DNA of 64,000 nucleotides, from contig JAZRUG010000015.1 in NCBI GenBank assembly GCA_045652425.1, forward strand, positions 1,240 to 65,239, given 5' to 3'. Below are positions 47 to 62,521 of the stretch, one piece after another. A model generated the notes under the pieces. The model did not search any database, had not been told where the DNA came from, and saw only the letters and a list, made by a program, of their open reading frames with translations. Source of the stretch: Eubacteriales bacterium. GTDB taxonomy: Bacteria; Bacillota; Clostridia; Oscillospirales; CAG-272. The translations under genes and the position numbers were made by a program. Positions within the stretch are counted from its first letter, which is position 1, and each line of letters opens with the position of its first letter.

Positions 47-77
47 GCACAAAAAGAAGGCGTGGTTCTTTTTGTGC
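47..77 (+). terminator. Perfect 12-bp hairpin (gcacaaaaagaa-N7-ttctttttgtgc); possible terminator of a gene ending at the window edge
   Basis: Inverted repeat read directly. No clean T-run follows, because it runs straight into a repeat element. Confidence 0.3.
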
Positions 78-156
78 CTTCTCCAGCGGAGAAGGTGTCG
101 AGGCAGAATACAGGCTTCATCAATACAATTACTTTGCTGCCGAGACGGATGAGGAG
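77..156 (+). repeat. Interspersed structured repeat, family 1, copy a (CCTTCTCC-N3-GGAGAAGG-GTGTCGAGGCAG ... CTTTGCTGCCGAGACGGATGAGG)
   Basis: Both ends are near-identical to 1902..1980. Has a terminal hairpin plus GTCGAGGCAG/CTGCCGAGAC long-range complementarity. Confidence 0.75.
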
Positions 157-198
157 AACATCTTTTTCGCTCTCCTCATCCACCACTATCGTGGTCCC

Positions 199-372
199 CC
201 TTCTCCGCTGGAGAAGGCGCTTACATTGTTCGCACGTACAAAAACAGCCTCCACTGTGTAAGGGGAGGTGGCATTTTCGTAAGAAAATGACGGAGGGGGT
301 GTTTCTGCTTTTCTTTACTTATTCAAACAATCCCTCACCGCCTACGGCGGAGCTCCCTTTACACAAGGGAGC
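199..372. repeat. Chain of short GC-rich hairpin modules
   Basis: ccttctcc-gct-ggagaagg 199..217; cattttc-gtaa-gaaaatg 272..289; ccgcc-tac-ggcgg 338..350; gctccctt-tacac-aagggagc 352..372. Confidence 0.5.
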
Positions 373-402
373 CTGACAATACGAGTACAAACTATACTGT
401 CA

Positions 403-568
403 GTCATTCTGAGTGGAGCGCCGTGTGGCGCGGAATCGAAGAATATCATTATCTCCGCACAAAAAACAATGGGATTCCTCGACTTCGCTCGGAATGACCA
501 TAGAAATTCTCTCTGTGCAGAAATAACGGAATTCCTCGACTGCGAAACAGAATGACTATAGAGATTAT
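403..568. repeat. Repeat family 2 (GTCATTCYGAG...CGAGGAATCC), three copies in mixed orientation
   Basis: Copies at 403..447 (+), 471..499 (-) and 528..556 (-). The last two sit inside a roughly 57-nt tandem unit (453..510 / 511..568). Confidence 0.7.
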
Positions 569-584
569 CTCTGTTTCTCCAACT

Positions 585-1625
585 TCACGAAAATATCTCT
601 TTTCTTACTTTCTTTAGTATCTCTGCATTTTTGGTAAAGTCCATAGCTTCTATATAGTACTTTTCAAGCGAAGTATGAATGTCGTATATCTCATCAAAAC
701 CTTTTTGCACTCCCTCGTAGAGCGAATTAAGGCACCGTCTTGCAAATCTGTTTTTCTGCTTATTGTTTCGTAAAACATCTACATCAACAAACCTATCCAT
801 ATTAATTTGCTTCTTGTTCAAATCGTCGTCCTCGCTTATTACGAAAGAACAACTTACCTCCGGCAAATATAGGGCAGACACGTTCGCAGTATCAAGATAT
901 GACGGGCTGTAAACCACCTTTAATCCCTTACTTTCAGCCTTTTTCAGTAACATATCCATAAAAAGACATCCTATACTGTAGCGGTCTCTTATTACATATT
1001 TATTATCGGCAAAATTATGGAAAGTATCGTAAATAATATGTCCCGCGTGGCTTATTCCCTCTACAGGACGGAGTTTTTTTGAAAAACCTTTTCCGTTTTT
1101 CCACCCCTTTGTTAAACGCTCTACCGCACCTTGCATTTTTTCATACAACACAGCGCGCTTGTTATACAATTTTATTTCGGCTTCTATCCTGCCCGCCGCC
1201 GCCAGATAGTTATATACGTTGTTATAAAGTCTGCCTTTTGCGTTTACCAATTCGAATATTGTTTGCGTTCTTTTTTGTAACACTTCCCCGTCCCAATTAT
1301 CGCCGAGATGTATAATCTTGTCTTTTACACCGGGGTATCGAGGATCATACGTATGGGGTGCCGTTCCATCTATAACAGCGGTATTCAACTCTTCTATTAT
1401 TATTCCGTCGAGTGATAACGGGTCAGCCGAGCAATAAAAATATTCTACGGAAAGTCTCTTGTTTTCGGCTTCGTCGGCTATTTTTCTGATAAAGCTTGAT
1501 TTCCCCGTACCTGGGCCGCCCTTTATTATGTACACCATATCAAGCTCACCGTATATCTCATTAAAATATGATACAAAACCCTTTTCGGTATTTGCAGATG
1601 CAAAGTACTTTTTTTCGTTCTGCAT
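585..1625 (-). CDS. P-loop NTPase of unknown function (PRK06851-like ATPase)
   Basis: 346-aa ORF with Walker A GGPGTGKSS near the N-terminus. Bracketed on both sides by repeat elements. Confidence 0.7.
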   Translation of the reverse strand: MQNEKKYFASANTEKGFVSYFNEIYGELDMVYIIKGGPGTGKSSFIRKIADEAENKRLSVEYFYCSADPLSLDGIIIEELNTAVIDGTAPHTYDPRYPGVKDKIIHLGDNWDGEVLQKRTQTIFELVNAKGRLYNNVYNYLAAAGRIEAEIKLYNKRAVLYEKMQGAVERLTKGWKNGKGFSKKLRPVEGISHAGHIIYDTFHNFADNKYVIRDRYSIGCLFMDMLLKKAESKGLKVVYSPSYLDTANVSALYLPEVSCSFVISEDDDLNKKQINMDRFVDVDVLRNNKQKNRFARRCLNSLYEGVQKGFDEIYDIHTSLEKYYIEAMDFTKNAEILKKVRKEIFS

Positions 1626-12066: not shown

Positions 12067-12095
12067 TTGACTTTTTTGAAAAGTTGTATTATAGT
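12067..12095 (+). promoter_or_regulatory. Sigma-70 type promoter of the B12 operon
   Basis: TTGACT (12067..12072), 17-nt spacer, TATAGT (12090..12095), about 25 nt upstream of riboswitch P1. Confidence 0.65.
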
Positions 12096-12120
12096 GTAAA
12101 AAGGTAAACATAAATACTCG

Positions 12121-12306
12121 AAGATACGGTTTGAAAAGTTAAACACTTAGTAGACGAAATAGGGAATTCGGTGTAAACCCGAAACAACCGCCATTACTGT
12201 ATATGTCGAACTGGGAGCATAAATAACCATTGGGAGTTTTCCCGAGAAGGATTGCTCATTTTGTGATTTTTCACATCGCCATGAGTCAGGAAACCTGCCG
12301 TATCTT
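12121..12306 (+). ncRNA. Cobalamin (B12) riboswitch aptamer
   Basis: 9-bp P1 aagatacgg/ccgtatctt; core AATAGGGAATTCGGTGTAAACCCGAAAC...CCGCCATTACTGT; B12 box AGTCAGGAAACCTGCC. Confidence 0.88.
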
Positions 12307-12337
12307 TTTAGGTTCAACACAACTTGGGTGAGAAGAG

Positions 12338-12498: not shown

Positions 12499-12816
12499 GT
12501 GACACCTGATGAAAAAAAGTCCTTGGCGGAAGAACTTTTGCGTCAAAAAGAAAAAGAGCTCGGAAGACTGCCTCGCAAGGACGACTTTGATGAAGCTACA
12601 CGGTCGCGAATTAAAGCCTTCCTAGGACCTTGGCCAAGAGCATTGGAGGCCGCAGGATTAAAGGAACCGCGAGTTATTCTTCCAAAATCCCAAAAAAGAA
12701 AAAAAGCAGCAACAAAATCAAAAAAAGAAGCCATTTCAGCGCGACAAAAATTGGAAAGGCGCAGAGCTCGAGCAAAGGAACAAAAAGCTTCTTTAGAAAA
12801 TGAAATCAAAGAATAA
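12499..12816 (+). CDS. Small, very basic protein with one homing-endonuclease-associated-repeat-like motif
   Basis: GTG start 6 nt after AAAGGAGGG. Motif GRLPRKDDFDEATRSRIKAFLGPWPRALEAAGL. Lys/Arg-rich coiled C-terminal tail. Confidence 0.6.
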   Translation: MTPDEKKSLAEELLRQKEKELGRLPRKDDFDEATRSRIKAFLGPWPRALEAAGLKEPRVILPKSQKRKKAATKSKKEAISARQKLERRRARAKEQKASLENEIKE

Positions 12817-12842: not shown

Positions 12843-14138
12843 ATGAAAAAAAGATTATTCAGCATTCTGCTTGCATTCGTATTGGTATTCTCAATGATAC
12901 ATTTGACATCGTTTGCTACAGACGAAGACATCGTTTACTTCTCAATCAGCTATGATGGACAATTCATTGAAGGTCAGGACGGCAAAAAAATTTCATATTC
13001 CCCTATTTCTGTTTCAGCATTGTCAAATATAAATTTAGCTGACTACGGACTCGAAGAATTCTTCTATGACGGAGATGGGGATAATAAATATGACATAACT
13101 TTACTTCATCTATACATCTATATTCACGAACAAATACTTGGTCTAGACTGGAATGACATAATGGTTTCTGGAGGTTCCGGAAGTATTTTCTTTGAATCAG
13201 GGCTTTTCGGCTTTGAAGATTGCAATTTGAATTACTACTACAACGGCTCATATCCCGAATTATATCCCGGTTGGGGAACTACTGCTGATTGCCTTTCACT
13301 CTCTAACGGAGATTTTTGCGATATTGCAGGTTATAGTAGCTGGTCATTTTGGAGCGACTCTGCAACAGGATTTCTCTACTTTGCAGATGAAGATGATAAC
13401 ATCACACACAACTATAACACCGACGCCAATACCCCCACCGACATTAAGCTTGTAAAAAGCGGAGGCGGTTTTGGAGGTGAATTAAATTTTAACACCATTG
13501 CCAATTATGATGTTTACTATGGTACATCATTAGATAATCGTGTTGGAACAGTTACAACTGACGAAAACGGTATAGCAACCCTTCCCACGCTTGATGCAGG
13601 AACTTATGTACTTTGGTGCGATGGTGGATACGGTGAAGAAAACCCCATGGATATTGTATCGGCCCCCGCCTATGCAACACTTACCGTAAATCAAGGCGCA
13701 TCAAATCCCCCTGTCGAAAAAACACCTTTAGAAAAAGCTGTTGAAGGAACACCTTTGAGTATCGGCGTTACCTCGACCAATGACAATGTAGTAATTGTCC
13801 CAACATCAAAAAACAATACTGCACTTACTCAAAACGAACTTATCAATATCTTATCTGACGAATCAATTACAATAACCGCAAACAATGGAATAATCGGTAC
13901 GGGTTGCAAAATCTCCATAAATGAAGAAGAAACTGAACTTGTAGTTATGGGCGATATAGACGGCGACGGCATTGTAAATGTATTTGATGCATTGATTTTG
14001 AAAAAAGCATTAACCAATAATACAAATCTTGAATCCATTATTGAGTTTGCCGGTGATGTTGATGGCAACAAAGAATTATCTGAATCAGACATTGATAAAA
14101 TCCTTTCGCATATAGTTGGAGAATCCTATATCGACTAA
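12843..14138 (+). CDS. Secreted dockerin protein with N-terminal DUF4430-like module and an Ig-like module
   Basis: Signal peptide. C-terminal two-segment dockerin GDIDGDGIVNVFDALILKKAL / GDVDGNKELSESDIDKILSHIVG. The N-terminal region resembles DUF4430 only weakly. Confidence 0.65.
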   Translation: MKKRLFSILLAFVLVFSMIHLTSFATDEDIVYFSISYDGQFIEGQDGKKISYSPISVSALSNINLADYGLEEFFYDGDGDNKYDITLLHLYIYIHEQILGLDWNDIMVSGGSGSIFFESGLFGFEDCNLNYYYNGSYPELYPGWGTTADCLSLSNGDFCDIAGYSSWSFWSDSATGFLYFADEDDNITHNYNTDANTPTDIKLVKSGGGFGGELNFNTIANYDVYYGTSLDNRVGTVTTDENGIATLPTLDAGTYVLWCDGGYGEENPMDIVSAPAYATLTVNQGASNPPVEKTPLEKAVEGTPLSIGVTSTNDNVVIVPTSKNNTALTQNELINILSDESITITANNGIIGTGCKISINEEETELVVMGDIDGDGIVNVFDALILKKALTNNTNLESIIEFAGDVDGNKELSESDIDKILSHIVGESYID

Positions 14139-14175
14139 AGAAACTATTAACTTATTTTTTGGGAGAACTTTGGTG

Positions 14176-16167
14176 ATGAAAAAGAAACTTCTCTGCTTTT
14201 TACTCATTACAGTAATGCTATTTACAACAATTCCGTTGTCAATATTTGCAAACGAAAATGAGCAACAGAAAAAAAGCGTTAGCGATGTATTAAACACCAC
14301 GTTAGCGCAACTTGCCAATACCGTAACAGCCCCCTCGTTTGGTACAAGTGCAGGTGAGTGGACTGTTCTTTGTCTTGCGCGCGGTGAATACTACGAAAAA
14401 GATAACGTTTATTTTAACGATTACTATAATAGAATCGTTGAATACGTAAATACTCAAGCACAAAAAATAAACATGAACGGTGCGTTACACAAATCCAAAT
14501 CTACAGACAATTCAAGATTAATACTCGCCCTCTCTTCTATTGGTAAAGATGCAACGTCTGTAGGCGATTGGAATTTGATTACTCCATACAATGATTTTAA
14601 TTGGATAAAAAAACAAGGTATAAACGGTGTTATTTTCGCCTTAATCGCACTAGATGCCAACAATTACCAAACAACCGATTCCACAATTCGTCAGCAATGT
14701 ATTGATTATCTGTTTGAAAAGCAGCTTGATGATGGTGGTTGGGCTATGTCGGGTAAAACTTTTAATACCGATATTACTGCAATGGCTTTGCAGTCTTTAT
14801 ACCCCTATCGCAACGAACAAGGCGTAACTGAAGTTGCCAATAAAGCTTTTTCTCGTTTATCCGAAGAGCAACTTGAAACCGGTGGATTTCTTTACGGCCC
14901 TGATGAAACCTCAGAAAGTGCTTCGCAATTCATTGTAGCTTGTACTACCTGGGGAATAAATCCACATACTGATAGTAGATTTATTAAAAACGGTAAGTCC
15001 GCTATAGATAATTTACTTTCGTATTACGCAGAAAATAATGCTATGTTTAAGCATTTTATCGATGGCGATTCCAACGATATGGCAACCGACCAAGCTTGTT
15101 ACGCACTTATTTCATATAATCGTTTCATAAACGGAAAAACTGCACTATATGATTACACTGACGTAGTTTTTGAAGGTACTGAACAAACCGTTATCGGTCC
15201 CCCTAAAGTTACTCTCGGTCTTCCGTCGGCAATAACCGACGACATCGGACGAACATTTAATGCCACAATAAATCTTGACCGCTGGGATAATTCTGCAGAA
15301 TATAAACTCATCGATTTTGTGATAAATGTTCCAACCGGATTAAGTGTAACCAACATTACCGCTAACAATCGTTTTGTTGGCGGTACGCTGAACTACAATC
15401 TCGAAGAAGATACCGGCAAATTACGTGTGGTTTACTTTGATGCAAATAATAATACCAGTCTTACAGTCAGCGGAACTACCTTCCCCATTTCAGCCTTCAC
15501 GATTACTTTTCGTGTAGACTCTGCAACTGCAGGAGATAGACTTGGAATAAATATTGGCGGAATGTCTTTAAAACGCACGTCAGATGCAACAGCCGAAGAA
15601 TCAATGACGATTGTTGACTCTACTTCTGCAAACGGAAAGATATCCGTCGTAGCAGGAATTTCATACAGTGCCGTATGTCTTTACACAGGTGATGATATTG
15701 ACATTATCCCCTCCACAAAAAAGGCAATCGCAATATCACTAACCGGAATAGAAAACACAGTAAAGCTTTTGTATGATGACGGTACAAACAAATATGAATT
15801 TAAGTACAGTCAAGAAATTTCAAAAAAGGCAGGAATTTCAACTTACATTGCCTTGGTAGATTCTTCTATTGATATGACAGCATTTGTAAACAAATCCAAC
15901 TTTACCTTCGAAGAAACAAATACAAACAATCTAACTTTCGGCGACGCAAACGCTGACGGAGTTATCAACGCCCAAGATGCTCTTATAGCTGTAGACACTT
16001 GGCTACGCAAGAATGACACGATTTCCGATAACGATATATTAGCGCTAAATGTAAACTGCGATAGTAGAATTAATACTTTTGATGCATTGGGTATCGTCGA
16101 AGCCTTCGTGAACGGCAGCGAGTATTCTATAATTACAAAAGCGGCTACGCTTTCTACCAAAAATTAA
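14176..16167 (+). CDS. Secreted adaptor protein: alpha/alpha-toroid (prenyltransferase/terpene-cyclase-like repeats) + cohesin-like module + dockerin
   Basis: ATG at 14176 after GGGAGA; signal peptide; DDGGWAMSG and ETGGFLYG repeats; cohesin-like stretch (FNATINLDRW...YKLIDFVINVPTGLSV...GKLRVVYFD); dockerin GDANADGVINAQDALIAVD / CDSRINTFDALGIVEAFV. Confidence 0.7.
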   Translation: MKKKLLCFLLITVMLFTTIPLSIFANENEQQKKSVSDVLNTTLAQLANTVTAPSFGTSAGEWTVLCLARGEYYEKDNVYFNDYYNRIVEYVNTQAQKINMNGALHKSKSTDNSRLILALSSIGKDATSVGDWNLITPYNDFNWIKKQGINGVIFALIALDANNYQTTDSTIRQQCIDYLFEKQLDDGGWAMSGKTFNTDITAMALQSLYPYRNEQGVTEVANKAFSRLSEEQLETGGFLYGPDETSESASQFIVACTTWGINPHTDSRFIKNGKSAIDNLLSYYAENNAMFKHFIDGDSNDMATDQACYALISYNRFINGKTALYDYTDVVFEGTEQTVIGPPKVTLGLPSAITDDIGRTFNATINLDRWDNSAEYKLIDFVINVPTGLSVTNITANNRFVGGTLNYNLEEDTGKLRVVYFDANNNTSLTVSGTTFPISAFTITFRVDSATAGDRLGINIGGMSLKRTSDATAEESMTIVDSTSANGKISVVAGISYSAVCLYTGDDIDIIPSTKKAIAISLTGIENTVKLLYDDGTNKYEFKYSQEISKKAGISTYIALVDSSIDMTAFVNKSNFTFEETNTNNLTFGDANADGVINAQDALIAVDTWLRKNDTISDNDILALNVNCDSRINTFDALGIVEAFVNGSEYSIITKAATLSTKN

Positions 16168-16175
16168 GCAATAGA

Positions 16176-16203
16176 TTAAGGGGGATATAAAATTCCCCCT
16201 TAA
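16176..16203 (+). other. Intra-operon 10-bp hairpin (partial terminator or mRNA stabiliser)
   Basis: ttaaggggga-N8-ttcccccttaa followed by cttttac, between the adaptor gene and the anchored-cohesin gene. Confidence 0.4.
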
Positions 16204-16225
16204 CTTTTACACAAGGAGAATTATT

Positions 16226-16852
16226 ATGAGCAAACAACTATTGAATAAAAAAACTAAAATGACATTACTTTTAAGTATAAACGCCGTTTTATTACTTCTT
16301 TTATTGATAATTATTCTTCTTGTCACAAAAAAAGACATCCGATTTAATGATTCCCCTACGCTTACCATTGAAACACCCCCAAAAATCAGCCTTTCTAAAA
16401 CAAACGAGTTTTTGGTGGACGTAAATATTTCCTCATTTGGAGATACACTCTACCCCGCTGTCAGTATGAATATTTCTTTTGACCCGTCAAGACTTGAATT
16501 TCTTAACGTTGAAGAAGGAAACGTATTTATCAGAAATGATGAAAATGACGTAACTCAAAAACTTCCTCAATGGAGTTTTAATTCTGAACAATGCAACAAC
16601 ACGGGAATAATCAGCATTATGTATCTTGATACAACGGGCGGAAAAAATGCCTTCAGCAAAGACCTTCTTGCTGATGATAACAATGTAGTACTTCGCCTTA
16701 AGTTCCGTTTACGCGGAAGCGCACGAAAAGGCGACGTATATGATTTAATCTTTGAGGATGCCGTATTTGCCGCTTCAAATGAATCGGATAGCCTGGCAAT
16801 CACACGCGATACCTTAAAAGTCAAAAACGGTAAAATCGTAATAGGAGAATAA
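16226..16852 (+). CDS. Membrane-anchored single-cohesin protein
   Basis: N-terminal TM (LLLSINAVLLLLLLIIILLV), then a roughly 150-aa cohesin-like domain (VDVNISSFGDTLYPAVSMNISFDPSRLEFLNVEEGNVF ... VVLRLKFRLRGSARKGDVYDLIFED ... VKNGKIVIG). Confidence 0.7.
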   Translation: MSKQLLNKKTKMTLLLSINAVLLLLLLIIILLVTKKDIRFNDSPTLTIETPPKISLSKTNEFLVDVNISSFGDTLYPAVSMNISFDPSRLEFLNVEEGNVFIRNDENDVTQKLPQWSFNSEQCNNTGIISIMYLDTTGGKNAFSKDLLADDNNVVLRLKFRLRGSARKGDVYDLIFEDAVFAASNESDSLAITRDTLKVKNGKIVIGE

Positions 16853-16854
16853 TA

Positions 16855-18087
16855 ATGAAAAAAATATTGAGTTTTATATTTATTTTATCACTTTTACTTT
16901 CAATTACGGCATGTAGTGGTAACTATGCAAAAGTTGATTTAAGAAAACCAATTGATATTCCTCAAAACGGTATTATTGAAAAACAACTGTTAGACGAAAT
17001 CAAAGCAGAAAATGCCATTGCTACTTTTACCAGCAAATCAAACAACTTAAAATACGAATGGATAATATTCGGAAGCGATCTTGAAGAAACTAAAGACATC
17101 AATTTATCACTTTCATTAGAAGAAAAAGAGGGTAGCGTTTCAGTCAAATTCAACGAAACTGCCGACTTTGGTTTCCCTTCGCTCTTGTCAATCTACTTAA
17201 ATAAAAAATGGACTGCAAACAGCGCTTCCGCCTACAATGGTGAAAACGCTGAATATTCAGTTTCAATCACCGGAAGTAAAACAAGTATCCTCAATATTTC
17301 CATTAACAAAACTGTTCCAAATCTTGAAATCTTCCCCGACGAAACGCAACAAACTGACGATCTTCTTTGCCCCGAATCCACTTCACCTCCAGAAACCATT
17401 CTCTCTCCGAACGAAACCAACAAAGTGGATAATTATCTTTCCGGCACAATTACAGAAGAAAACAACGAATTTCGCCAAGAAGAAACACAACAAACAAGCA
17501 ATATTCACTCAAATGATACATACATAACAGACAACTATCTTTCTAACACACTTCCTGAAGAAAACCGCGTTTATTCAGACGGCAACATCACTAACCAAGA
17601 TAAATATAAAACCGATCCCATTCCTGAAGGTAAACCCTTACCGGTTGAACCCGAAAATCAAGAAGTCAACAACAAAAAAGTTCTTACCTGCACAATTTCA
17701 ATAGAATGTTCAACAATTTTAAACAACCTATCTGTCCTTGATCCCGACAAACTTGAACTCGTTCCGTCAAACGGTGTGATTTTAGCCCCCATAAAAGTAT
17801 CTTTTTACGAGGGCGAGTCGGTATTTAACGTACTTCAGCGTGTATGCAAAGAAAAAGGTATTCATTTGGAATCTTCTTGGACACCTATCTACAACAGCGC
17901 ATACATAGAAGGCATTCACAATTTATACGAATTTGACTGCGGTGAGCTTTCAGGTTGGATGTACCGCGTTAACGGCTGGTATCCCAATTACGGCTCTTCA
18001 AGATACCAACTTGTAGACGGAGAGATCATCGAATGGCGTTATACATGCGACCTCGGCAAAGACATCGGTTGTGATTGGATGGGATAA
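16855..18087 (+). CDS. Lipoprotein with C-terminal DUF4430 (transcobalamin beta-domain-like) module
   Basis: Lipobox LSITAC. C-terminus NLYEFDCGELSGWMYRVNGWYPNYGSSRYQLVDGEIIEWRYTCDLGKDIG is canonical DUF4430. Low-complexity linker with DNYLS.T..EEN repeats. Confidence 0.8.
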   Translation: MKKILSFIFILSLLLSITACSGNYAKVDLRKPIDIPQNGIIEKQLLDEIKAENAIATFTSKSNNLKYEWIIFGSDLEETKDINLSLSLEEKEGSVSVKFNETADFGFPSLLSIYLNKKWTANSASAYNGENAEYSVSITGSKTSILNISINKTVPNLEIFPDETQQTDDLLCPESTSPPETILSPNETNKVDNYLSGTITEENNEFRQEETQQTSNIHSNDTYITDNYLSNTLPEENRVYSDGNITNQDKYKTDPIPEGKPLPVEPENQEVNNKKVLTCTISIECSTILNNLSVLDPDKLELVPSNGVILAPIKVSFYEGESVFNVLQRVCKEKGIHLESSWTPIYNSAYIEGIHNLYEFDCGELSGWMYRVNGWYPNYGSSRYQLVDGEIIEWRYTCDLGKDIGCDWMG

Positions 18088-18089
18088 TT

Positions 18090-18980
18090 ATGCGAGATTC
18101 TTTTTCTAATTTTCATCCCTTCAATAACTTTTTATATTTCGCCTTGGTTATTGGCTTTTCTCTTGCGTTATATCATCCATTAGCGCAAGTAATATCCCTT
18201 ATTTGCGCATGTATTTACGTCATCAGCATAGAAAGCAAAAAAAGCGTGTTGTTTATTTTTAAGTATTGTTTACCCATGGTGATTTTAACGACCTTTATAA
18301 ATCCCGCCTTTAACCACGAGGGGACAACTATTTTACTTTATTTCAGCAATGGAAATCCATTAACATTTGAAAGCATTTTGTACGGCATATCGGCAGGCTC
18401 TATGCTTGTAACGGTATTGCTTTGGTTTTCGTCGTTTAACCGAGTAATGACATCGGATAAGTTTATTTATCTATTCGGTAAGCTTATTCCTGCTTTATCG
18501 TTGGTATTAAGTATGTCCTTGCGATTTGTACCGAAATTCAAATCACAAATGGCAACCGTTACGGAAGCACAACGAAGCATTGGCCGTGACGTGTCAAGCG
18601 GAAGCCTGTTCAGCAGAACAAAAACGGCGATTCTTATTTTTTCTATTATGATTACTTGGTCACTTGAAAATGCCATTGAAACGGCGGACAGTATGAAAAG
18701 CCGCGGATATGGGCTAAAAGGCCGAACCGCTTTTTCAATCTACCACTTCGATGAACGCGATAAATATACATTGGCTTGGCTTTGCTTTTGCGGTCTGTTT
18801 TTGCTTATCGGTACGATACTTAACGCCTTTGGGTTTCGATATTTTCCAAATATCCGTTACGCTGCGCTAGATAGGACCACTATTCCATTTTACTGCGTAT
18901 ATTTTGCCCTTTGCATTACCCCTGTCGTATTAAACATAAAGGAGGATAAAAAATGGAAAACTTTAGTTTCAAAGACGTAA
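18090..18980 (+). CDS. ecfT: ECF transporter transmembrane (T) component, CbiQ family
   Basis: Polytopic membrane protein with a CbiQ-like layout. ATG at 18090 lies 3 nt after the upstream stop. Coupling-helix-type region EAQRSIGRD...ETADSMKSRGY. Confidence 0.8.
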   Translation: MRDSFSNFHPFNNFLYFALVIGFSLALYHPLAQVISLICACIYVISIESKKSVLFIFKYCLPMVILTTFINPAFNHEGTTILLYFSNGNPLTFESILYGISAGSMLVTVLLWFSSFNRVMTSDKFIYLFGKLIPALSLVLSMSLRFVPKFKSQMATVTEAQRSIGRDVSSGSLFSRTKTAILIFSIMITWSLENAIETADSMKSRGYGLKGRTAFSIYHFDERDKYTLAWLCFCGLFLLIGTILNAFGFRYFPNIRYAALDRTTIPFYCVYFALCITPVVLNIKEDKKWKTLVSKT

Positions 18981-21598
18981 ACTTTTCATATCCCGAACAA
19001 AAAAATAAAGCTCTCCAAAATATCTCCTTTGATATTTCACAGGGAGAATTTGTTATTCTTTGCGGTCCTTCGGGTTGCGGAAAATCCACGTTGCTCCGTC
19101 ACCTTAAAACCAGCCTTGCACCTCACGGAATTTTGACAGGTGATATTCTGTTTGATGGCAATCTTTTAAGCGAAACCGATGAGCGCACACAATCGCAGAA
19201 AATCGGATTTGTGTTGCAATCCCCTGAAAATCAGGTGGTAACCGATAAAGTATGGCACGAATTGGCTTTCGGTCTTGAAAGTCTTGGCTACGATACACCA
19301 ACAATTCGCCGCCGTGTCGCTGAAGTTGCGGCATTCTTCGGTATTGAGAATTGGTTTTATAAAAACGTTACCGAGCTTTCGGGAGGTCAAAAGCAGCTTT
19401 TAAGTCTTGCTTCTGTTATGGCGATGAGCCCTAAAATTTTGGTACTTGATGAGCCCACCGCACAGCTTGATCCTATTGCCGCCGCTGACTTTTTGGATTT
19501 GCTTGGTAAAATTAACCGCGAACTTGGCATTACCGTTATTCTGACCGAACACCGCCTTGAAGAAGCGTTCCCCTTTGCAACAAGAGTTATTGTTATGGAA
19601 AAGGGTGCGATTGTTTGTGACGATGCTCCTGGAAAGGTTGGACTGCATCTTCGCGATAAGGATTGCGGTATGTTCCTAGCAATGCCTACAGCCATGCGTG
19701 TTTGGGCAGGAATTGAAAACACTCTTGCCTGTCCTCTCACTGTGCGTGACGGAAGTGATTTTTTAACCGAGCTAAATAAACAAAAAACTATTTTACCTTT
19801 AAATGCAGTTCAAAATACCCCCTATAACCATGAAATCACCTTGCAATGTAATGAAATATGGTTCCGTTATGAAAAAAACTTGCCCGATGTTGTAAAAGGC
19901 CTTTCGCTCACCCTGCATAAAGGTGAATTTTATGCAATACTCGGTGGTAACGGTGCGGGTAAAACCACATCGCTTAAAGTTATTTCACGACTTTACTCCG
20001 CCTATCGCGGTACACTTCAAACTAACGGCAAAATAGGAATGTTACCGCAAAATCCGCAAGCGCTTTTTGTGAAAAGAACCGTGCGTGAGGATTTATACGA
20101 AGCACTGTGCGACATAAGGCTTTCCAAAGAGGAAAAGAAAAAACATGTTGCGCGCATAGTCGCTCTTTGCGGACTCAGTGAATTTCTCGACAGACACCCA
20201 TATGATATTTCGGGGGGGGAGCAACAACGAACCGCACTTGCCAAAGTGCTTTTGACTGCACCCGATATTCTTTTACTTGATGAACCTACAAAGGGGGTTG
20301 ATGCAGAATTTAAGGTGACCTTTGCCGATATTATTGATAAACTGACCAAACAGGGTGTTACCGTTCTTATGGTGAGCCACGATGTGCCTTTTTGTTCAGA
20401 GTATGCTCACCGTTGTGGAATGTTCTTTGACGGAAACATTGTAGCAGAAGGCTCTCCCCGTGAGTTTTTCTCGGGTAACAGTTTTTATACGACTCCTGCA
20501 AACCGTATGGCAAGGCATTTGATTCCCAATGCAGTTACGGTTGATGATATTATTGTTTGCTGCGGCGGAAAAATCAAAAAGAAGCAAGAGGAATTTAATG
20601 AGGTTTCACCTCTGCCCTCGCCTCCGCCGAGAAGCGTAAACTTTAAGCCTCAGCCTCTAAAACTGTGGCGAAAGCTTCTTGCCATAATTTCGGGAATTGT
20701 TGCCTTCGGTGTGTTCCTATATGCGACTGGTATTACCAACCTGTCCTCCCTCGTGACTTCTTCAGGGCTAAGCACACAAGGCAAGGAACAGTTATCATTG
20801 TATATCGTTTTGTTTGCATCTCTGACGGTATTTTTGTTTGCAATCGGACGGCGAAGTGAACCGCCGCTTGTAGCACAAACACCAAAAGAAAAGCGTAATT
20901 TAAGCAACCGTACCATTGCAGCAACCGTTTGTATTTTGCTGTTGATTCCGCTTACAATCTTTGCCGGTATCTTCTATATGGATGATCGGCAGTATAATCT
21001 TGTAGCTTTGCTGATCTTACTTGAATGTATGCTGCCCTTTATTCTTGTGTTTGAAGGCAGAAAGCCTAAAGCAAGAGAGCTTGTTACCATAGCCGTACTT
21101 TGTGCCATCGGCATTGCAGGTAGAAGTTTGTTCTTTATGCTCCCGCAGTTCAAACCCGTGCTTGCGCTTACAATAATTGCCGGTGTTGCCTTTGGTGGTG
21201 AGGCAGGCTTTTTGGTGGGAGCTGTTACAATGCTTACCTCTAATATGCTTTTCTCACAAGGGCCTTGGACACCTTGGCAAATGTTTGCAATGGGAATTAT
21301 CGGTTTCCTTGCCGGTGTACTTTTCAAAAAGGGCTGGCTTCGAAGAACCCGTGTATCTCTTGCTGTATTCGGCGCATTTACCGCGATTATCATTTACGGC
21401 GGTATTATGAATCCTGCCGCCGCATTTATGGTATCGTCAGAAGGCATAACATTAAAAACGTTGTTTGCCTACTACATTACGGGATTTCCTATGGATCTCG
21501 TTCATGCTTTTGGAACGGTAATATTTATTATGATTGCCGCCGAGCCTATGCTTGAAAAAATGGATCGAATAAAGGTTAAATACGGCTTGGTCGAATAA
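18953..21598 (+). CDS. Fused ECF ATPase-ATPase-S component (EcfA1-EcfA2 plus membrane domain)
   Basis: Two ABC cassettes (GPSGCGKST/LSGGQKQ/LVLDEP and GGNGAGKTT/ISGGEQQ/LLLDEP), a Pro-rich linker, then a roughly 300-aa polytopic domain with ECF-S-like GPWTPWQM. Confidence 0.8.
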   Translation: MENFSFKDVNFSYPEQKNKALQNISFDISQGEFVILCGPSGCGKSTLLRHLKTSLAPHGILTGDILFDGNLLSETDERTQSQKIGFVLQSPENQVVTDKVWHELAFGLESLGYDTPTIRRRVAEVAAFFGIENWFYKNVTELSGGQKQLLSLASVMAMSPKILVLDEPTAQLDPIAAADFLDLLGKINRELGITVILTEHRLEEAFPFATRVIVMEKGAIVCDDAPGKVGLHLRDKDCGMFLAMPTAMRVWAGIENTLACPLTVRDGSDFLTELNKQKTILPLNAVQNTPYNHEITLQCNEIWFRYEKNLPDVVKGLSLTLHKGEFYAILGGNGAGKTTSLKVISRLYSAYRGTLQTNGKIGMLPQNPQALFVKRTVREDLYEALCDIRLSKEEKKKHVARIVALCGLSEFLDRHPYDISGGEQQRTALAKVLLTAPDILLLDEPTKGVDAEFKVTFADIIDKLTKQGVTVLMVSHDVPFCSEYAHRCGMFFDGNIVAEGSPREFFSGNSFYTTPANRMARHLIPNAVTVDDIIVCCGGKIKKKQEEFNEVSPLPSPPPRSVNFKPQPLKLWRKLLAIISGIVAFGVFLYATGITNLSSLVTSSGLSTQGKEQLSLYIVLFASLTVFLFAIGRRSEPPLVAQTPKEKRNLSNRTIAATVCILLLIPLTIFAGIFYMDDRQYNLVALLILLECMLPFILVFEGRKPKARELVTIAVLCAIGIAGRSLFFMLPQFKPVLALTIIAGVAFGGEAGFLVGAVTMLTSNMLFSQGPWTPWQMFAMGIIGFLAGVLFKKGWLRRTRVSLAVFGAFTAIIIYGGIMNPAAAFMVSSEGITLKTLFAYYITGFPMDLVHAFGTVIFIMIAAEPMLEKMDRIKVKYGLVE

Positions 21599-48022: not shown

Positions 48023-48098
<76 letters not shown>

Positions 48099-52712: not shown

Positions 52713-53185
52713 CCGTACCAGACCGCGCGTTCGCGTGATATTATGCCGAAAGGTCGTATCGCGAGGAAAGTCCGGGCTTCATAGGGCAGGATAACGGATA
52801 ACGTCCGCCGGAGGCAACTCCCGGGAGAGTGCAACAGAGATATACCGCCTATACTATTTGCGGATGGCTTCGCCATACCGAGTAAAGATGGTTAGGCTGT
52901 TTTTTCAAAACAGCCTATACCGCTAATATTTTGTACGTATAGGTAAGGGTGGAAAGGCGAGGTAAGAGCTCACCTTGCTCTATGGTAACATAGAGGAAAT
53001 GTAAACCCTATCCGAAGCAACACCGTATAAGAGTATTGCAGAAATGCAAGCGGCTGCCCGTCGTTTACTCTTGGGTGGCGCGGGTTTTTACCCGAAGCTT
53101 GTCGGTAACGCCAAGCGAAGATAGATGAACGCGGTTAAGCTTTATGCTTTTCACAGAACCCGGCTTACAAGTCTGATATAACCAT
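52713..53185 (+). ncRNA. rnpB: RNase P RNA, bacterial type A
   Basis: GAGGAAAGTCCGGGCTTCATAGGGCAGG, GGTAAGGGTGGAAAGGCGAGGTAAGAGCTCACC and ACAGAACCCGGCTTA. Ends are approximate, within about 10 nt. Confidence 0.92.
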
Positions 53186-60826: not shown

Positions 60827-60886
60827 ATTAATAGTTATTAGCCAATTGAGTTGATGTAACAAAAATTGAAAAGGAGATTTATACCG

Positions 60887-62521
60887 ATGAAAAATTTTGC
60901 AAAAATCTTGGTTTTGGCTTTTTCAGTTGTAATCATTGCCGGACTGTTAATAGCAAGCTCGTTTGCGGCAGAGGTTACTGACACCGTTACACTTCAGCCG
61001 GGAAGTGATAGAGTTATATTTATTAAAGATGCTCCCAGAGATGAAAACTATGTAGTAACAGGTGAACTTGAAGGTGACGGAACAGGATTAGATCCTGATA
61101 ATCCCTTGAGACCGGACGAATGGCATGAAGATTTTGATCCTGCTGCTCAATATCCCAAATGGCATCTTTTGACAGCGTTCTACCAAGCAACCGAGCTTTT
61201 GCGGGAAGAAGGCGGAACAATTGTTGTCTGCGGTCCCGTATATTTTGGTGTCGGCGAAAGCTATGGCTCAGGCGGTTCTGAAAGGGACGTGTTTACAGCC
61301 ACTTTTAGAGATAACGTTATTAAGATTACTTCTGTTTACAACGGTGTTGACTATCGTGAAACAGCAGGTGCAAAAATTATAATAGATAGTCCCGCAATGT
61401 TATCGGTACGAGGTTCTTCCATTTGGGAAAATATTGATATTGCAACGGCGGCTGCTGATCGTGCAATTACATTTGATGAACATCGCACATTGATAGGAGA
61501 CGGGGTAAATTGTTATCCTACCACTCAAGAATTTTATACTCCTGCATCAAGCTACGTGAGTCTTTCTGCCGGACACAGATATTCGGGAAGTGATGGCGAA
61601 AATCCTACCCTTACCGTATTGTCAGGTACATATAACTATATTACCGGTGGTGTGTGGGGAGCGGTTTCGTCAGCCATAATGGAAAATGCAAACGTAAATC
61701 TTACACTTGGTGGAACTACAAAGGTTCTTGGTGTAGTTTCGGGTACGGTTCGCCAAAAAGCAGGTTTCTCCGGCAATGTAAACATTACAATTAACGGCGG
61801 TACTTACGAGTGTGATATTTGTGGTGTTGGTAAGACAGGTATGCTTAATACCGATGGAATTGTTAATATTACAATTAACGGTGGCGATTTTAAGAACGCA
61901 GGGTCTATCAGCAACGTGGCGATTGATGCAACTAATAATATGCCCGCATCATGTACGGTTGATTTTTCCGATTGGACAGGCAAAATGATCGATCTTGCAT
62001 TTGCAAACAAGAGTGTTGTCGGTATCGATGATATTAAGTATCCTACAGGAGTAACAGCAGATAATTTGGTTGAGTTGATTGAGAACTATAATCCATCATA
62101 TTCCGAAGAAAATCTTGACTATATAGAAAGTGTTTTAGAGGGAACGGGGTTGAGTCTTGATTATACTGTCAAAAATAATCCTGTAATAACAGTGCCTCTT
62201 TCGGCTGACGGTAAGGCTATGACTGTGGAAGAACTTGGGGAATTGATTGATGACGATGAAGTTACGATTGGTGTGGCTAATGGCGTTGTCGGTACAGGTT
62301 GTAGACTTGTAATAGGCGAATATATTTTGGAAATTGCAGTTAAGGGTGATTTGGACGGCGACGGAATAGTAACGGTATATGATGCTGCTATGGTTAAAAA
62401 GGCTGTTGCGAATAATGGTTTCGTCGGAAATGGTGTTCGTGAGTTTGCGGGAGATTTTGATGGAACAAACGGAACGAATGTGGAGGACGTAGATGCAATT
62501 CTTGCCTATGTTCTAGGATAA
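60887..62521 (+). CDS. Secreted beta-helix-like protein with C-terminal dockerin (paralog 1)
   Basis: Signal peptide; GDGTG..DNPL; repeated INGG/TLGG turns; dockerin GDLDGDGIVTVYDAAMVKKAV / GDFDGTNGTNVEDVDAILAYVLG. Confidence 0.75.
   Translation: MKNFAKILVLAFSVVIIAGLLIASSFAAEVTDTVTLQPGSDRVIFIKDAPRDENYVVTGELEGDGTGLDPDNPLRPDEWHEDFDPAAQYPKWHLLTAFYQATELLREEGGTIVVCGPVYFGVGESYGSGGSERDVFTATFRDNVIKITSVYNGVDYRETAGAKIIIDSPAMLSVRGSSIWENIDIATAAADRAITFDEHRTLIGDGVNCYPTTQEFYTPASSYVSLSAGHRYSGSDGENPTLTVLSGTYNYITGGVWGAVSSAIMENANVNLTLGGTTKVLGVVSGTVRQKAGFSGNVNITINGGTYECDICGVGKTGMLNTDGIVNITINGGDFKNAGSISNVAIDATNNMPASCTVDFSDWTGKMIDLAFANKSVVGIDDIKYPTGVTADNLVELIENYNPSYSEENLDYIESVLEGTGLSLDYTVKNNPVITVPLSADGKAMTVEELGELIDDDEVTIGVANGVVGTGCRLVIGEYILEIAVKGDLDGDGIVTVYDAAMVKKAVANNGFVGNGVREFAGDFDGTNGTNVEDVDAILAYVLG

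Follow-up and report, generated by a model that had tools for sequence, protein, structure and literature searches.

A cobalamin-riboswitch operon of gut Clostridia may encode a cohesin-docked, transcobalamin-like system for corrinoid capture beside an ECF transporter

We describe a putative operon for the capture and uptake of corrinoids in a 64,000-nucleotide (nt) stretch of DNA from a Eubacteriales bacterium (contig JAZRUG010000015.1; this whole stretch is referred to here as the window). The genes lie on the forward strand and are read in one direction, from a cobalamin riboswitch through a small open reading frame (ORF) with an HNH_repeat domain to ORF1, ORF2, ORF3 and ORF4, and then to the genes of an energy-coupling factor (ECF) transporter (Table 1). 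Each of the four numbered proteins that precede the transporter bears a sign of export or anchoring, namely a signal peptide in ORF1 and in ORF2, a membrane anchor in ORF3 and a lipobox in ORF4. We lean, with some reserve, towards the view that this operon, repressed through its riboswitch, serves to capture corrinoids at the surface of Gram-positive gut Clostridia, using a toroid (in ORF2) together with a beta-type module, and to import them through a transporter of the ECF-CbrT type. The assignment of these modules to one corrinoid-uptake system is well supported, because the riboswitch lies upstream, the ECF T, A-A' and S components lie downstream, and the S component matches the solved structure 6fnp_A. 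The riboswitch and the transporter, neither of which figured in a preliminary description of this DNA, are central to our interpretation.

Table 1. Features of the operon. Nucleotide positions are those of the window and residue numbers those of each protein.
Feature	Position (nt)	Residues (aa)	Strand	Remarks
Promoter-like site, TTGACT-17-TATAGT	12067..12095		+	10/12 consensus matches; directly 5' of the riboswitch
Cobalamin riboswitch aptamer RF00174, operon leader	12110..12316		+	Full model length
Small lysine-rich ORF, HNH_repeat domain	12500..12816		+	PF18780, E 3e-10; between riboswitch and ORF1
ORF1	12843..14138		+	Secreted, 431 aa; signal peptide and dockerin
ORF1 signal peptide		1-24
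ORF1 beta-like alpha/beta module	12915-13358	25-172	+
ORF1 beta-sandwich	13395-13697	about 185-285	+	Weak SpaA and CarboxypepD_reg matches
ORF1 X-module	13713-13937	291-365	+
ORF1 dockerin	13938-14135	366-431	+	Dockerin_1, E 5e-7, 30.3 bits (cut-off 22.9)
ORF2	14176..16167		+	Secreted, 663 aa; toroid, O2mid and dockerin
ORF2 alpha/alpha toroid	14266-15195	31-340	+
ORF2 'O2mid', cohesin-like or X-type beta module	15226-15930	351-585	+
ORF2 dockerin	15931-16164	586-663	+	Dockerin_1, 24.1 bits (cut-off 22.9)
ORF3	16226..16852		+	208 aa; membrane anchor and single cohesin
ORF3 N-terminal membrane anchor		about 12-34
ORF3 cohesin	16409-16789	62-188	+	PF00963, E 7e-8, 33.2 bits (cut-off 24.1)
ORF4	16855..18087		+	410-aa lipoprotein; C-terminal DUF4430
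ORF4 DUF4430 domain, conserved 145 aa	17650-18084 (Pfam core 17812-18045)		+
ORF5, ECF T component (CbiQ family)	18075..18980		+	PF02361, E 2.4e-6, 27.8 bits (cut-off 25)
ORF6, EcfA-EcfA'-S fusion	18953..21598		+	881 aa
ORF6 S component	21071-21535	about 707-861	+	ECF-ribofla_trS and ECF_trnsprt matches

The riboswitch aptamer scores 82.3 bits against a gathering score of 31.5 (expectation value, E, 9e-19). To place the operon among its relatives, an alignment of the toroid was scanned against one genome per GTDB species; at least 573 loci (species) encode a relative, and our analysis of loci covers 80 of these together with two further loci, L001 and L002 (82 related loci in all), and the window, which between them hold 88 toroid genes. 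RF00174 was confirmed in each of the 11 related loci tested, from Clostridia, Bacillus, Paenibacillus and Lutispora, and in a locus reached separately, L083; an nhmmer profile finds homologous leaders in 56 of the 82 related loci, and upstream sequence is absent for many of the remainder. The promoter-like site is a match to the consensus only, and comparable sites in the region are not enriched over shuffled sequences. We note that PF18780, the domain of the small ORF behind the riboswitch, is a 'homing endonuclease associated repeat'; this ORF is kept at the equivalent position in L001, L004, L005, L007, L032, L033 and L063. The 58 nt that separate ORF2 from ORF3 include a GC-rich hairpin, GGGGGATATAAAATTCCCC, whose T tail is weak (16180-16198, + strand). 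By acting as a partial terminator or as a site of processing, this hairpin could set how much of the secreted proteins is made relative to the transporter.

The features expected of an ECF-type transporter for B12 are all present at the locus, namely an EcfT protein, duplicated EcfA, an S component related to 6fnp_A and a cobalamin riboswitch. In ORF6 two ATPases (EcfA and EcfA') are joined to a CbrT-like S component by extra membrane helices. The ATPases match ABC_tran twice (E 7e-59) as well as ECF_ATPase_1 and ECF_ATPase_2, and TIGR04520 is matched with 337 bits against a cut-off of 315. Among solved structures the S component significantly matches only 6fnp_A (E 5.5e-6, 170 residues; residues 10-177 of the 182-aa chain), which we take to be CbrT, from the vitamin B12 transporter ECF-CbrT of Lactobacillus delbrueckii. 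The extra helices of ORF6 are two in number (predicted, at about aa 560-640), and the same A-A'-S fusion occurs in about 40 related loci; covalent attachment of the S component is out of the ordinary where transport is believed to depend on its toppling.

Directly ahead of the transporter genes lies ORF4, in which a lipobox (ITAC) and an N-terminal beta-rich domain are followed by a polar linker of about 100 aa and the C-terminal DUF4430 domain (aa 266-410). The canonical DUF4430 module ascribed to this lipoprotein in the preliminary description is borne out by PF14478, which matches residues 320-397 with E 2.6e-14 (53.8 bits, cut-off 23.8). The C-terminal 145 residues have more than 4,173 homologues or clusters, which are short 'DUF4430 domain-containing' lipoproteins of up to 85% identity, and wherever a contig extends so far the DUF4430 lipoprotein is encoded by a separate gene adjoining that for EcfT. 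DUF4430 has been described as the C-terminal domain of TCN proteins (PMC4350170); the link between DUF4430 and transcobalamin rests on this Pfam family definition and on HHpred results for proteins of Lactobacillus sakei (bioRxiv 10.1101/864751), to which we return below.

The second kind of domain, the toroid, is found in ORF2. Both sequence repeats from which it had been recognised (QLDDGGWAMSG and QLETGGFLYG) are present there, and AlphaFold, with 69 homologues aligned, confidently models residues 31-350 as a 12-helix alpha/alpha toroid (mean predicted local distance difference test, pLDDT, 94; predicted template modelling score, pTM, 0.91). By AlphaFold and Foldseek the model has the alpha6/alpha6 barrel fold of the large domain of transcobalamin. 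Invariant residues of the toroid, in the numbering of the model, are Y53, Y54, N82, W159, D169, Q202, D236 and K241. The Foldseek comparison that had been suggested does find human transcobalamin in the PDB (2bb5_A, rank 18, E 3e-3, template modelling score 0.55; 2v3n and 7qbe_C were also matched), but it stands behind or level with a GH88 hydrolase, MstE and squalene-hopene cyclases, and prenyltransferase beta subunits. The name 'transcobalamin-like' given to the toroid earlier is thus apt for its alpha/alpha fold and not for its specificity, since enzymes match equally well or better. A Pfam scan of the operon proteins gave no match to PF01122 (Cobalamin_bind).

Relatives of ORF2, of which the toroid family holds 1,421, include proteins named 'terpene cyclase/mutase family protein' by NCBI. 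On ORF2 itself, matches to Prenyltrans (16.2 bits, cut-off 26.5) and SQHop_cyclase_C (15.7 bits, cut-off 26.1) are below threshold, with E about 0.007, and TIGR01787 scores 18 bits against a cut-off of 323. When the family profile is compared with the PDB, squalene-hopene cyclase repeats are found with E 4.8e-9, along with drimenyl diphosphate synthases and class II cyclases; the similarity is confined to repeated helical-hairpin segments, seen as six partial matches along squalene-hopene cyclase. The DxDD site of these enzymes, D-V-D-D-T in squalene-hopene cyclase, is D-P-D-I-T in the family consensus and N-T-D-I-T in the window, so that the intact terpene-cyclase active site named earlier as an argument against a binding role is not there. 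Because the DxDD motif is degenerate and the protein is secreted, the toroid is, within our preferred reading of the operon, a binding or scaffolding module and no terpene cyclase.

The N-terminal module of ORF1, described earlier as a weaker DUF4430-like module, is probably, though not certainly, of that kind. Comparison of its family with DUF4430 families by hhalign gave probabilities of 0.9-36% using narrow profiles and 65% (E 6e-5, 53 columns) using a profile of 144 sequences from an exhaustive search. The aligned core was identical each time, with GLFGFEDCNLNYYYNGSYP..GWG..L.NGDF in the ORF1 module set against NLYEFDCG.SGWMYRVNGWYPNYG..L.DGE in DUF4430 or, in another rendering, FGFEDCNLNYYYNGSYP..GWG..L.NGDF against YEFDCG.SGWMYRVNGWYPNYG..L.DGE. 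AlphaFold predicts for residues 25-293 the order strand, strand, helix and five strands, with the beta-sandwich next, and this predicted order matches the sequence pattern of DUF4430. Moreover, the ORF1-type module of relatives sits in the exact slot before the toroid that is otherwise held by a canonical DUF4430. ORF1-type modules form a family of 527 clusters at 50% identity for which there is no Pfam model (ORF1 aa 25-172, E up to 1e-3; P0252-P0399), and members also turn up in surface proteins as long as 3,337 aa that have SLH, Big_2, fn3 and PKD domains.

The related loci belong to Bacillota, save for a few bins with other labels, and lie mostly in metagenome-assembled genomes of gut Oscillospiraceae, Acutalibacteraceae, Ruminococcus and Faecousia; further hosts are Clostridium (such as Clostridium sp. 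CCUG 7971, L078), Terrisporobacter (such as Terrisporobacter muris, L077), Lutispora, Bacillus and Paenibacillus. Their conserved order is riboswitch, toroid protein, in some loci the cohesin protein, DUF4430 lipoprotein, EcfT and EcfA-A', with or without S. A beta-type module is fused to the N-terminal side of the toroid in 64 of the 88 toroid genes (L003 and L004 provide examples), with the beta module before the alpha domain; the module is of the ORF1 type in 31 genes and a DUF4430 in 33, and among the latter is a divergent class whose hhalign match to the DUF4430 family of the lipoprotein has 97.6% probability. Another 14 toroid genes are unfused with a beta-module gene just upstream (some of these are second toroid paralogues), five have no beta module (L042, L054, L078, L080 and L081), and the remaining five are cut by the end of the contig. 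Fusion in most relatives is a standard sign of joint action and supports cooperation between the two domains, which by this reasoning probably cooperate physically. It is to the ORF1-type or N-terminal DUF4430 module that fusion links the toroid; the DUF4430 of the lipoprotein is always in a separate gene and, in loci that lack an extra beta module, is left as the sole candidate for a partner, as has been suggested for L. sakei.

The placing of alpha and beta folds on separate polypeptides, from which the preliminary description had started, is therefore true of the window but is the exception among its relatives. True splits are found in the window, L005, L021, L038, L061, L029 and L001/L002, and in the toroid tree they are scattered inside the fused clade; L083, reached through the closest homologue of ORF1 (P0122), is a further split locus with a like gene order and leader. 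Since a complete dockerin closes ORF1 and a signal peptide of its own opens ORF2, we regard the split as a real gene fission, and a frameshift artefact was rejected as its cause on these grounds and because the split recurs in L005 and L083. The window would accordingly be a rare, derived fission, as judged from these comparisons, with a separate dockerin acquired by the beta-like piece. We note two further arrangements. Giant proteins of about 1,500-2,500 aa, with repeated DUF4430 and toroid modules (for example DUF4430-toroid-DUF4430-toroid) and without cohesin or dockerin, are encoded ahead of the same lipoprotein and ECF genes in Paenibacillus, Lutispora and some Clostridia metagenome-assembled genomes (L057 4988-12502, L062 6731-12565, L073 5465-12703, L074 8291-13972, L075 2-6979 and L080 9533-14041). 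At L001 (6646-8614) and L002 (1-1852), which are independent assemblies, an ORF1-type module is broken at the same point into two ORFs, with its second half fused to the toroid, which could reflect a decaying copy or a shared assembly error; downstream in L001 a short ORF merges DUF4430-like and EcfT-like pieces.

Tethering of the extracellular proteins by cohesin and dockerin had also been proposed. Both dockerins, of ORF1 and ORF2, and the ORF3 cohesin exceed their Pfam cut-offs, and the dockerins have matches in the PDB as well. Wherever the contig continues, a toroid gene with an ORF2-type dockerin is followed by a homologous cohesin gene (45 of 45 loci), and the cohesin gene is missing in 37 of the 38 toroid loci without such a dockerin. 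This co-occurrence strongly suggests that the ORF2 dockerin and the ORF3 cohesin are a dedicated pair, which would keep the toroid protein at the membrane, close to the lipid-anchored ORF4. The middle module of ORF2 (O2mid) aligns with the ORF3 cohesin family by hhalign (69%, E 4.5e-5, 109 columns); BLASTP of the ORF2 middle region against ORF3 gave no significant match, and no other ORF of the window matches the module. Because O2mid is invariably found together with the ORF2-type dockerin, it may just as well have an X-module role as be a functional cohesin.

The dockerin of ORF1 is another matter. Taken together, its X-module and dockerin share 48% identity, across 63 aa, with the C-terminal end of ORF 60860-62518 (+ strand), and only short patches, of about 22 residues, are common to the dockerins of ORF1 and ORF2. 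ORF 60860-62518 encodes a secreted protein of 553 aa that has no Pfam match and ends in a small module and dockerin like those of ORF1. The presence of the same cassette in both proteins points to a general dockerin system besides the operon-specific pair; a cohesin matching this dockerin type was not found in the window. The proposed tethering is thus supported for the toroid protein, by the co-occurrence of its dockerin with the cohesin gene, but not for ORF1 on the same scaffold, given the different type of its dockerin. The ORF1 orthologues P0122, P0123 and P0128 bear yet other C-terminal dockerin-like modules (Pfam has Dockerin_1 on record for P0123 and P0128, and the C-terminus of P0122 aligns with that of P0123). 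A split-off beta-like protein with a dockerin is seen in three lineages, those of the window, L005 and L083/P0122-P0123, and this repeated gain argues that surface tethering has been selected. Elsewhere the window holds ordinary chromosomal features, among them a class A RNase P RNA (52715-53183, + strand, 236 bits) and a tRNA gene (48023-48095, + strand).

As a stand-in for a complex of alpha and beta domains, we modelled a chimera of ORF1 residues 25-293 and ORF2 residues 30-333 (12915-13721 and 14263-15174) that mimics the natural fusions, with the fusions included in the alignment. AlphaFold gave confident domains (pLDDT 92) but no confident relative arrangement, with a pTM of 0.60 compared with 0.91 for the toroid alone. 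The model neither favours nor rules against a sandwich that would be induced by a ligand. Intermolecular pairing of alpha and beta, the central idea of the preliminary description, thus draws support for cooperation from the fused relatives but no confident closed arrangement from the chimera. The best Foldseek matches of the chimera, with E about 5e-7, are complement C3/C4/C5 and alpha-2-macroglobulins, which we attribute to a common order of domains, an immunoglobulin-like macroglobulin domain and then the toroid of the thioester-containing domain, and not to function. The chimera has no thioester motif, its sequence being RQQC instead of CGEQ.

Taken together, the operon may work as follows. 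When B12 is scarce the leader would permit expression, the regulatory sense being that of the riboswitch family. The cohesin of the membrane protein ORF3 would hold the dockerin of ORF2, as the perfect co-occurrence of their genes suggests, and the ORF2 toroid and a beta-type module would together hold a corrinoid in a transcobalamin-like manner, their cooperation being suggested by the fusions and the binding of a corrinoid being putative. In the window that beta-type module would be ORF1, the DUF4430 domain of ORF4 or both, and ORF1, now split off, would join the complex at the surface through a dockerin unlike that of ORF2. The DUF4430 domain of the lipid-anchored ORF4, at the end of a long flexible linker, might then take over the corrinoid, or might serve as the beta partner of the toroid where one is otherwise absent; finally, to judge from what is known of these families, ORF4 would pass the corrinoid to the CbrT-like S component and the fused ATPases would drive import. 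It is possible to go further, although we do so only tentatively and with some doubt, and to see here a reverse-order 'bacterial transcobalamin' of gut Clostridia, docked by cohesin and allied with a B12 ECF transporter, whose fission in the window would mean that its alpha and beta halves, once both are tethered at the surface, are able to function in trans.

The closest known system is the lsa1836-1840 operon of L. sakei (Verplaetse et al., bioRxiv 10.1101/864751), which encodes ECF S, A-A' and T components and two exported proteins. By HHpred, Lsa1839 was likened to the beta domain and Lsa1840 to the alpha domain of human transcobalamin, Lsa1840 being also prenyltransferase-like, and the two were modelled as a heterodimer that sandwiches a tetrapyrrole, with haem docked, and passes it to the S component (bioRxiv 10.1101/864751). 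The idea of a split alpha/beta binder put forward in the preliminary description is therefore not new. As described in that paper, lsa1840 to lsa1836 resemble the window in content and order (toroid protein, DUF4430-type protein, EcfT, EcfA-A' and S), and the extracellular proteins of both have export signals. The text consulted refers neither to a cohesin or dockerin nor to a second beta-type module or a riboswitch, and the ligand claimed in it is haem; the window differs in having a cobalamin riboswitch, a membrane cohesin, two dockerins, an ORF1-type module, and A, A' and S in one chain.

Vertebrate transcobalamin, intrinsic factor and haptocorrin share with the window an alpha6/alpha6 toroid, a small DUF4430-type beta domain and a system devoted to cobalamin. 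In these carriers, however, one chain holds alpha and then beta, whereas the window has separate chains and its relatives have beta and then alpha; furthermore, the carriers have no sequence-level match to the window proteins, and the structural match of the toroid to them is no better than that to enzymes. ECF-CbrT of L. delbrueckii is alike in its T, A and A' components and in the S component that 6fnp_A matches. The solved ECF-CbrT reportedly consists of separate subunits and has no extracellular accessory proteins, unlike the window, where A, A' and S form one 881-aa chain and four extracellular proteins are encoded before the transporter genes. The cellulosomes and amylosomes of Clostridia and Ruminococcus have in common with the window type-I-like dockerins with two calcium-binding repeats, a membrane protein with a single cohesin, and dyads resembling X-module and dockerin, but the cargo in the window is a putative vitamin binder and not a carbohydrate-active enzyme, and the window's cohesin is encoded within a transporter operon under riboswitch control. 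Lastly, BtuG and BtuH of Bacteroides (PMC8941943) are surface-exposed binders that are encoded with a riboswitch-controlled B12 transporter and hand over the vitamin to it; as they have unrelated folds, serve an outer-membrane TonB system and belong to another phylum, they offer an analogy only.

Several observations weigh against corrinoid capture by a toroid and a beta-type module. Ligand binding is putative for all parts. The modelled toroid is transcobalamin-like solely in the sense of a generic fold that many non-binders match equally, glycoside hydrolases, terpene cyclases, prenyltransferases and the thioester-containing domains of complement among them, and searches of the PDB with the toroid profile (E up to 10), with the ORF4 sequence and with two DUF4430 profiles (E up to 10) returned no chain of transcobalamin, intrinsic factor or haptocorrin. 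The ligand-free chimera is not predicted to form a confident closed sandwich. The dockerin of ORF1 is of a different type from that of ORF2 and resembles that of an unrelated protein, and the five loci with a toroid and no extra beta module indicate that the N-terminal beta module is dispensable. Neither the whole of ORF1 nor its sub-regions match PF14478 in Pfam even at E up to 10, and by hhalign the relation of the ORF1 module to DUF4430 reaches at best the 65% obtained with the broad profile. Finally, the L. sakei operon has been tied by experiment to the uptake of haem and not of B12 (bioRxiv 10.1101/864751).

Some of these points feed the suggestion that the N-terminal module of ORF1 is unrelated to DUF4430 and the transcobalamin beta domain, and is an adhesin or other ligand binder that became fused by chance in one clade. 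We consider this doubtful, if well short of negligible: besides the missing Pfam match and the low probabilities from narrow profiles, the module has its own large family in SLH, Big_2 and fn3 surface proteins, and ten of its distant members have no DUF4430 match by Pfam either, but the broad profile aligns on the core motif of DUF4430, the modelled order of strands and helix parallels that domain, and the module replaces DUF4430 before the toroid. Rather unlikely, in our estimation, is a relay without a sandwich, in which DUF4430-type modules bind the corrinoid alone, the fusions serve co-localisation, and the toroid is otherwise employed, perhaps in cell-wall spacing, in recognising a foreign B12 carrier (haptocorrin, intrinsic factor or a microbial binder) or in protecting the ligand. 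The isolated beta domain of human transcobalamin can hold cobalamin unaided. It has been crystallised alone in several states (Bloch et al. 2017, via bioRxiv 10.1101/864751), and such a relay would also accord with the greater conservation (85% identity) and spread of the DUF4430 lipoprotein relative to the toroid family, with the lack of confident interdomain packing in AlphaFold, and with the variable order of DUF4430 and toroid in giant relatives (L057, L062, L073, L074 and L080). Against it, the adjacency of beta module and toroid in most toroid genes, with two beta types in one position, is what direct cooperation predicts, and the minimal conserved set, as in L. sakei, is toroid, DUF4430 and ECF transporter.

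It is improbable that the substrate is haem or another tetrapyrrole instead of a corrinoid. The L. sakei operon was reported to be an effective actor in haem uptake, and haem was docked between the modelled alpha and beta proteins (bioRxiv 10.1101/864751); nevertheless, a cobalamin riboswitch is present in every locus tested, the only significant solved match of the S component is 6fnp_A, and DUF4430 is the family of the cobalamin-binding C-terminal domain of TCN proteins. More improbable still is a toroid that is an enzyme merely sharing the operon, whether like a terpene cyclase or prenyltransferase, like a glycoside hydrolase, or active in remodelling corrinoids. The NCBI names among relatives, the profile matches to squalene-hopene cyclase and drimenyl diphosphate synthases, and the enzymes at the top of the Foldseek matches would fit such a role, but the similarity lies in generic repeats, the DxDD acid motif is not intact, and the Pfam and NCBIfam scores are far under the family cut-offs; moreover, the protein is secreted and tethered by a dockerin, away from isoprenoid diphosphates, and the toroid is fused to binding-type modules under the control of B12. 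We therefore continue to favour, with the reserve stated at the outset, corrinoid capture by toroid and beta-type module for delivery to the ECF transporter.

What our analysis adds to the L. sakei proposal is the context of a riboswitch and a CbrT-like transporter, the recognition that reverse-order fused proteins are the rule and the window a fission, and the dedicated anchoring by cohesin and dockerin, the last of which appears to be undescribed. Searches of the literature returned no paper that connects cohesin or dockerin modules with cobalamin uptake and no report of the operon's cohesin-dockerin anchoring, reversed fusions or fission; a search by the SEED-style name of the transporter returned nothing relevant, and a review of riboswitches in C. 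difficile does not list this operon.

Corrinoids are contested in the gut, and although their capture at the surface of Bacteroides is well studied, it is poorly understood how Gram-positive Clostridia acquire B12 when it is low. The operon family is a large one, with a toroid relative in at least 573 GTDB species genomes and more than 4,000 clusters of DUF4430 lipoproteins. If the toroid and beta module do form a high-affinity binder, they would represent a bacterial equivalent of the B12 carriers of vertebrates, to which they might even be related, and a function would be at hand for widespread mis-annotations as 'terpene cyclase/mutase family' proteins. Assembly by cohesin and dockerin, as in cellulosomes, would then extend to the scavenging of a nutrient other than carbohydrate. 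The naturally occurring fused and split variants provide ready-made constructs with which to ask whether the alpha and beta halves must pair, and the system, if it works as we propose, might account for the way in which Gram-positive bacteria of the gut compete for corrinoids.

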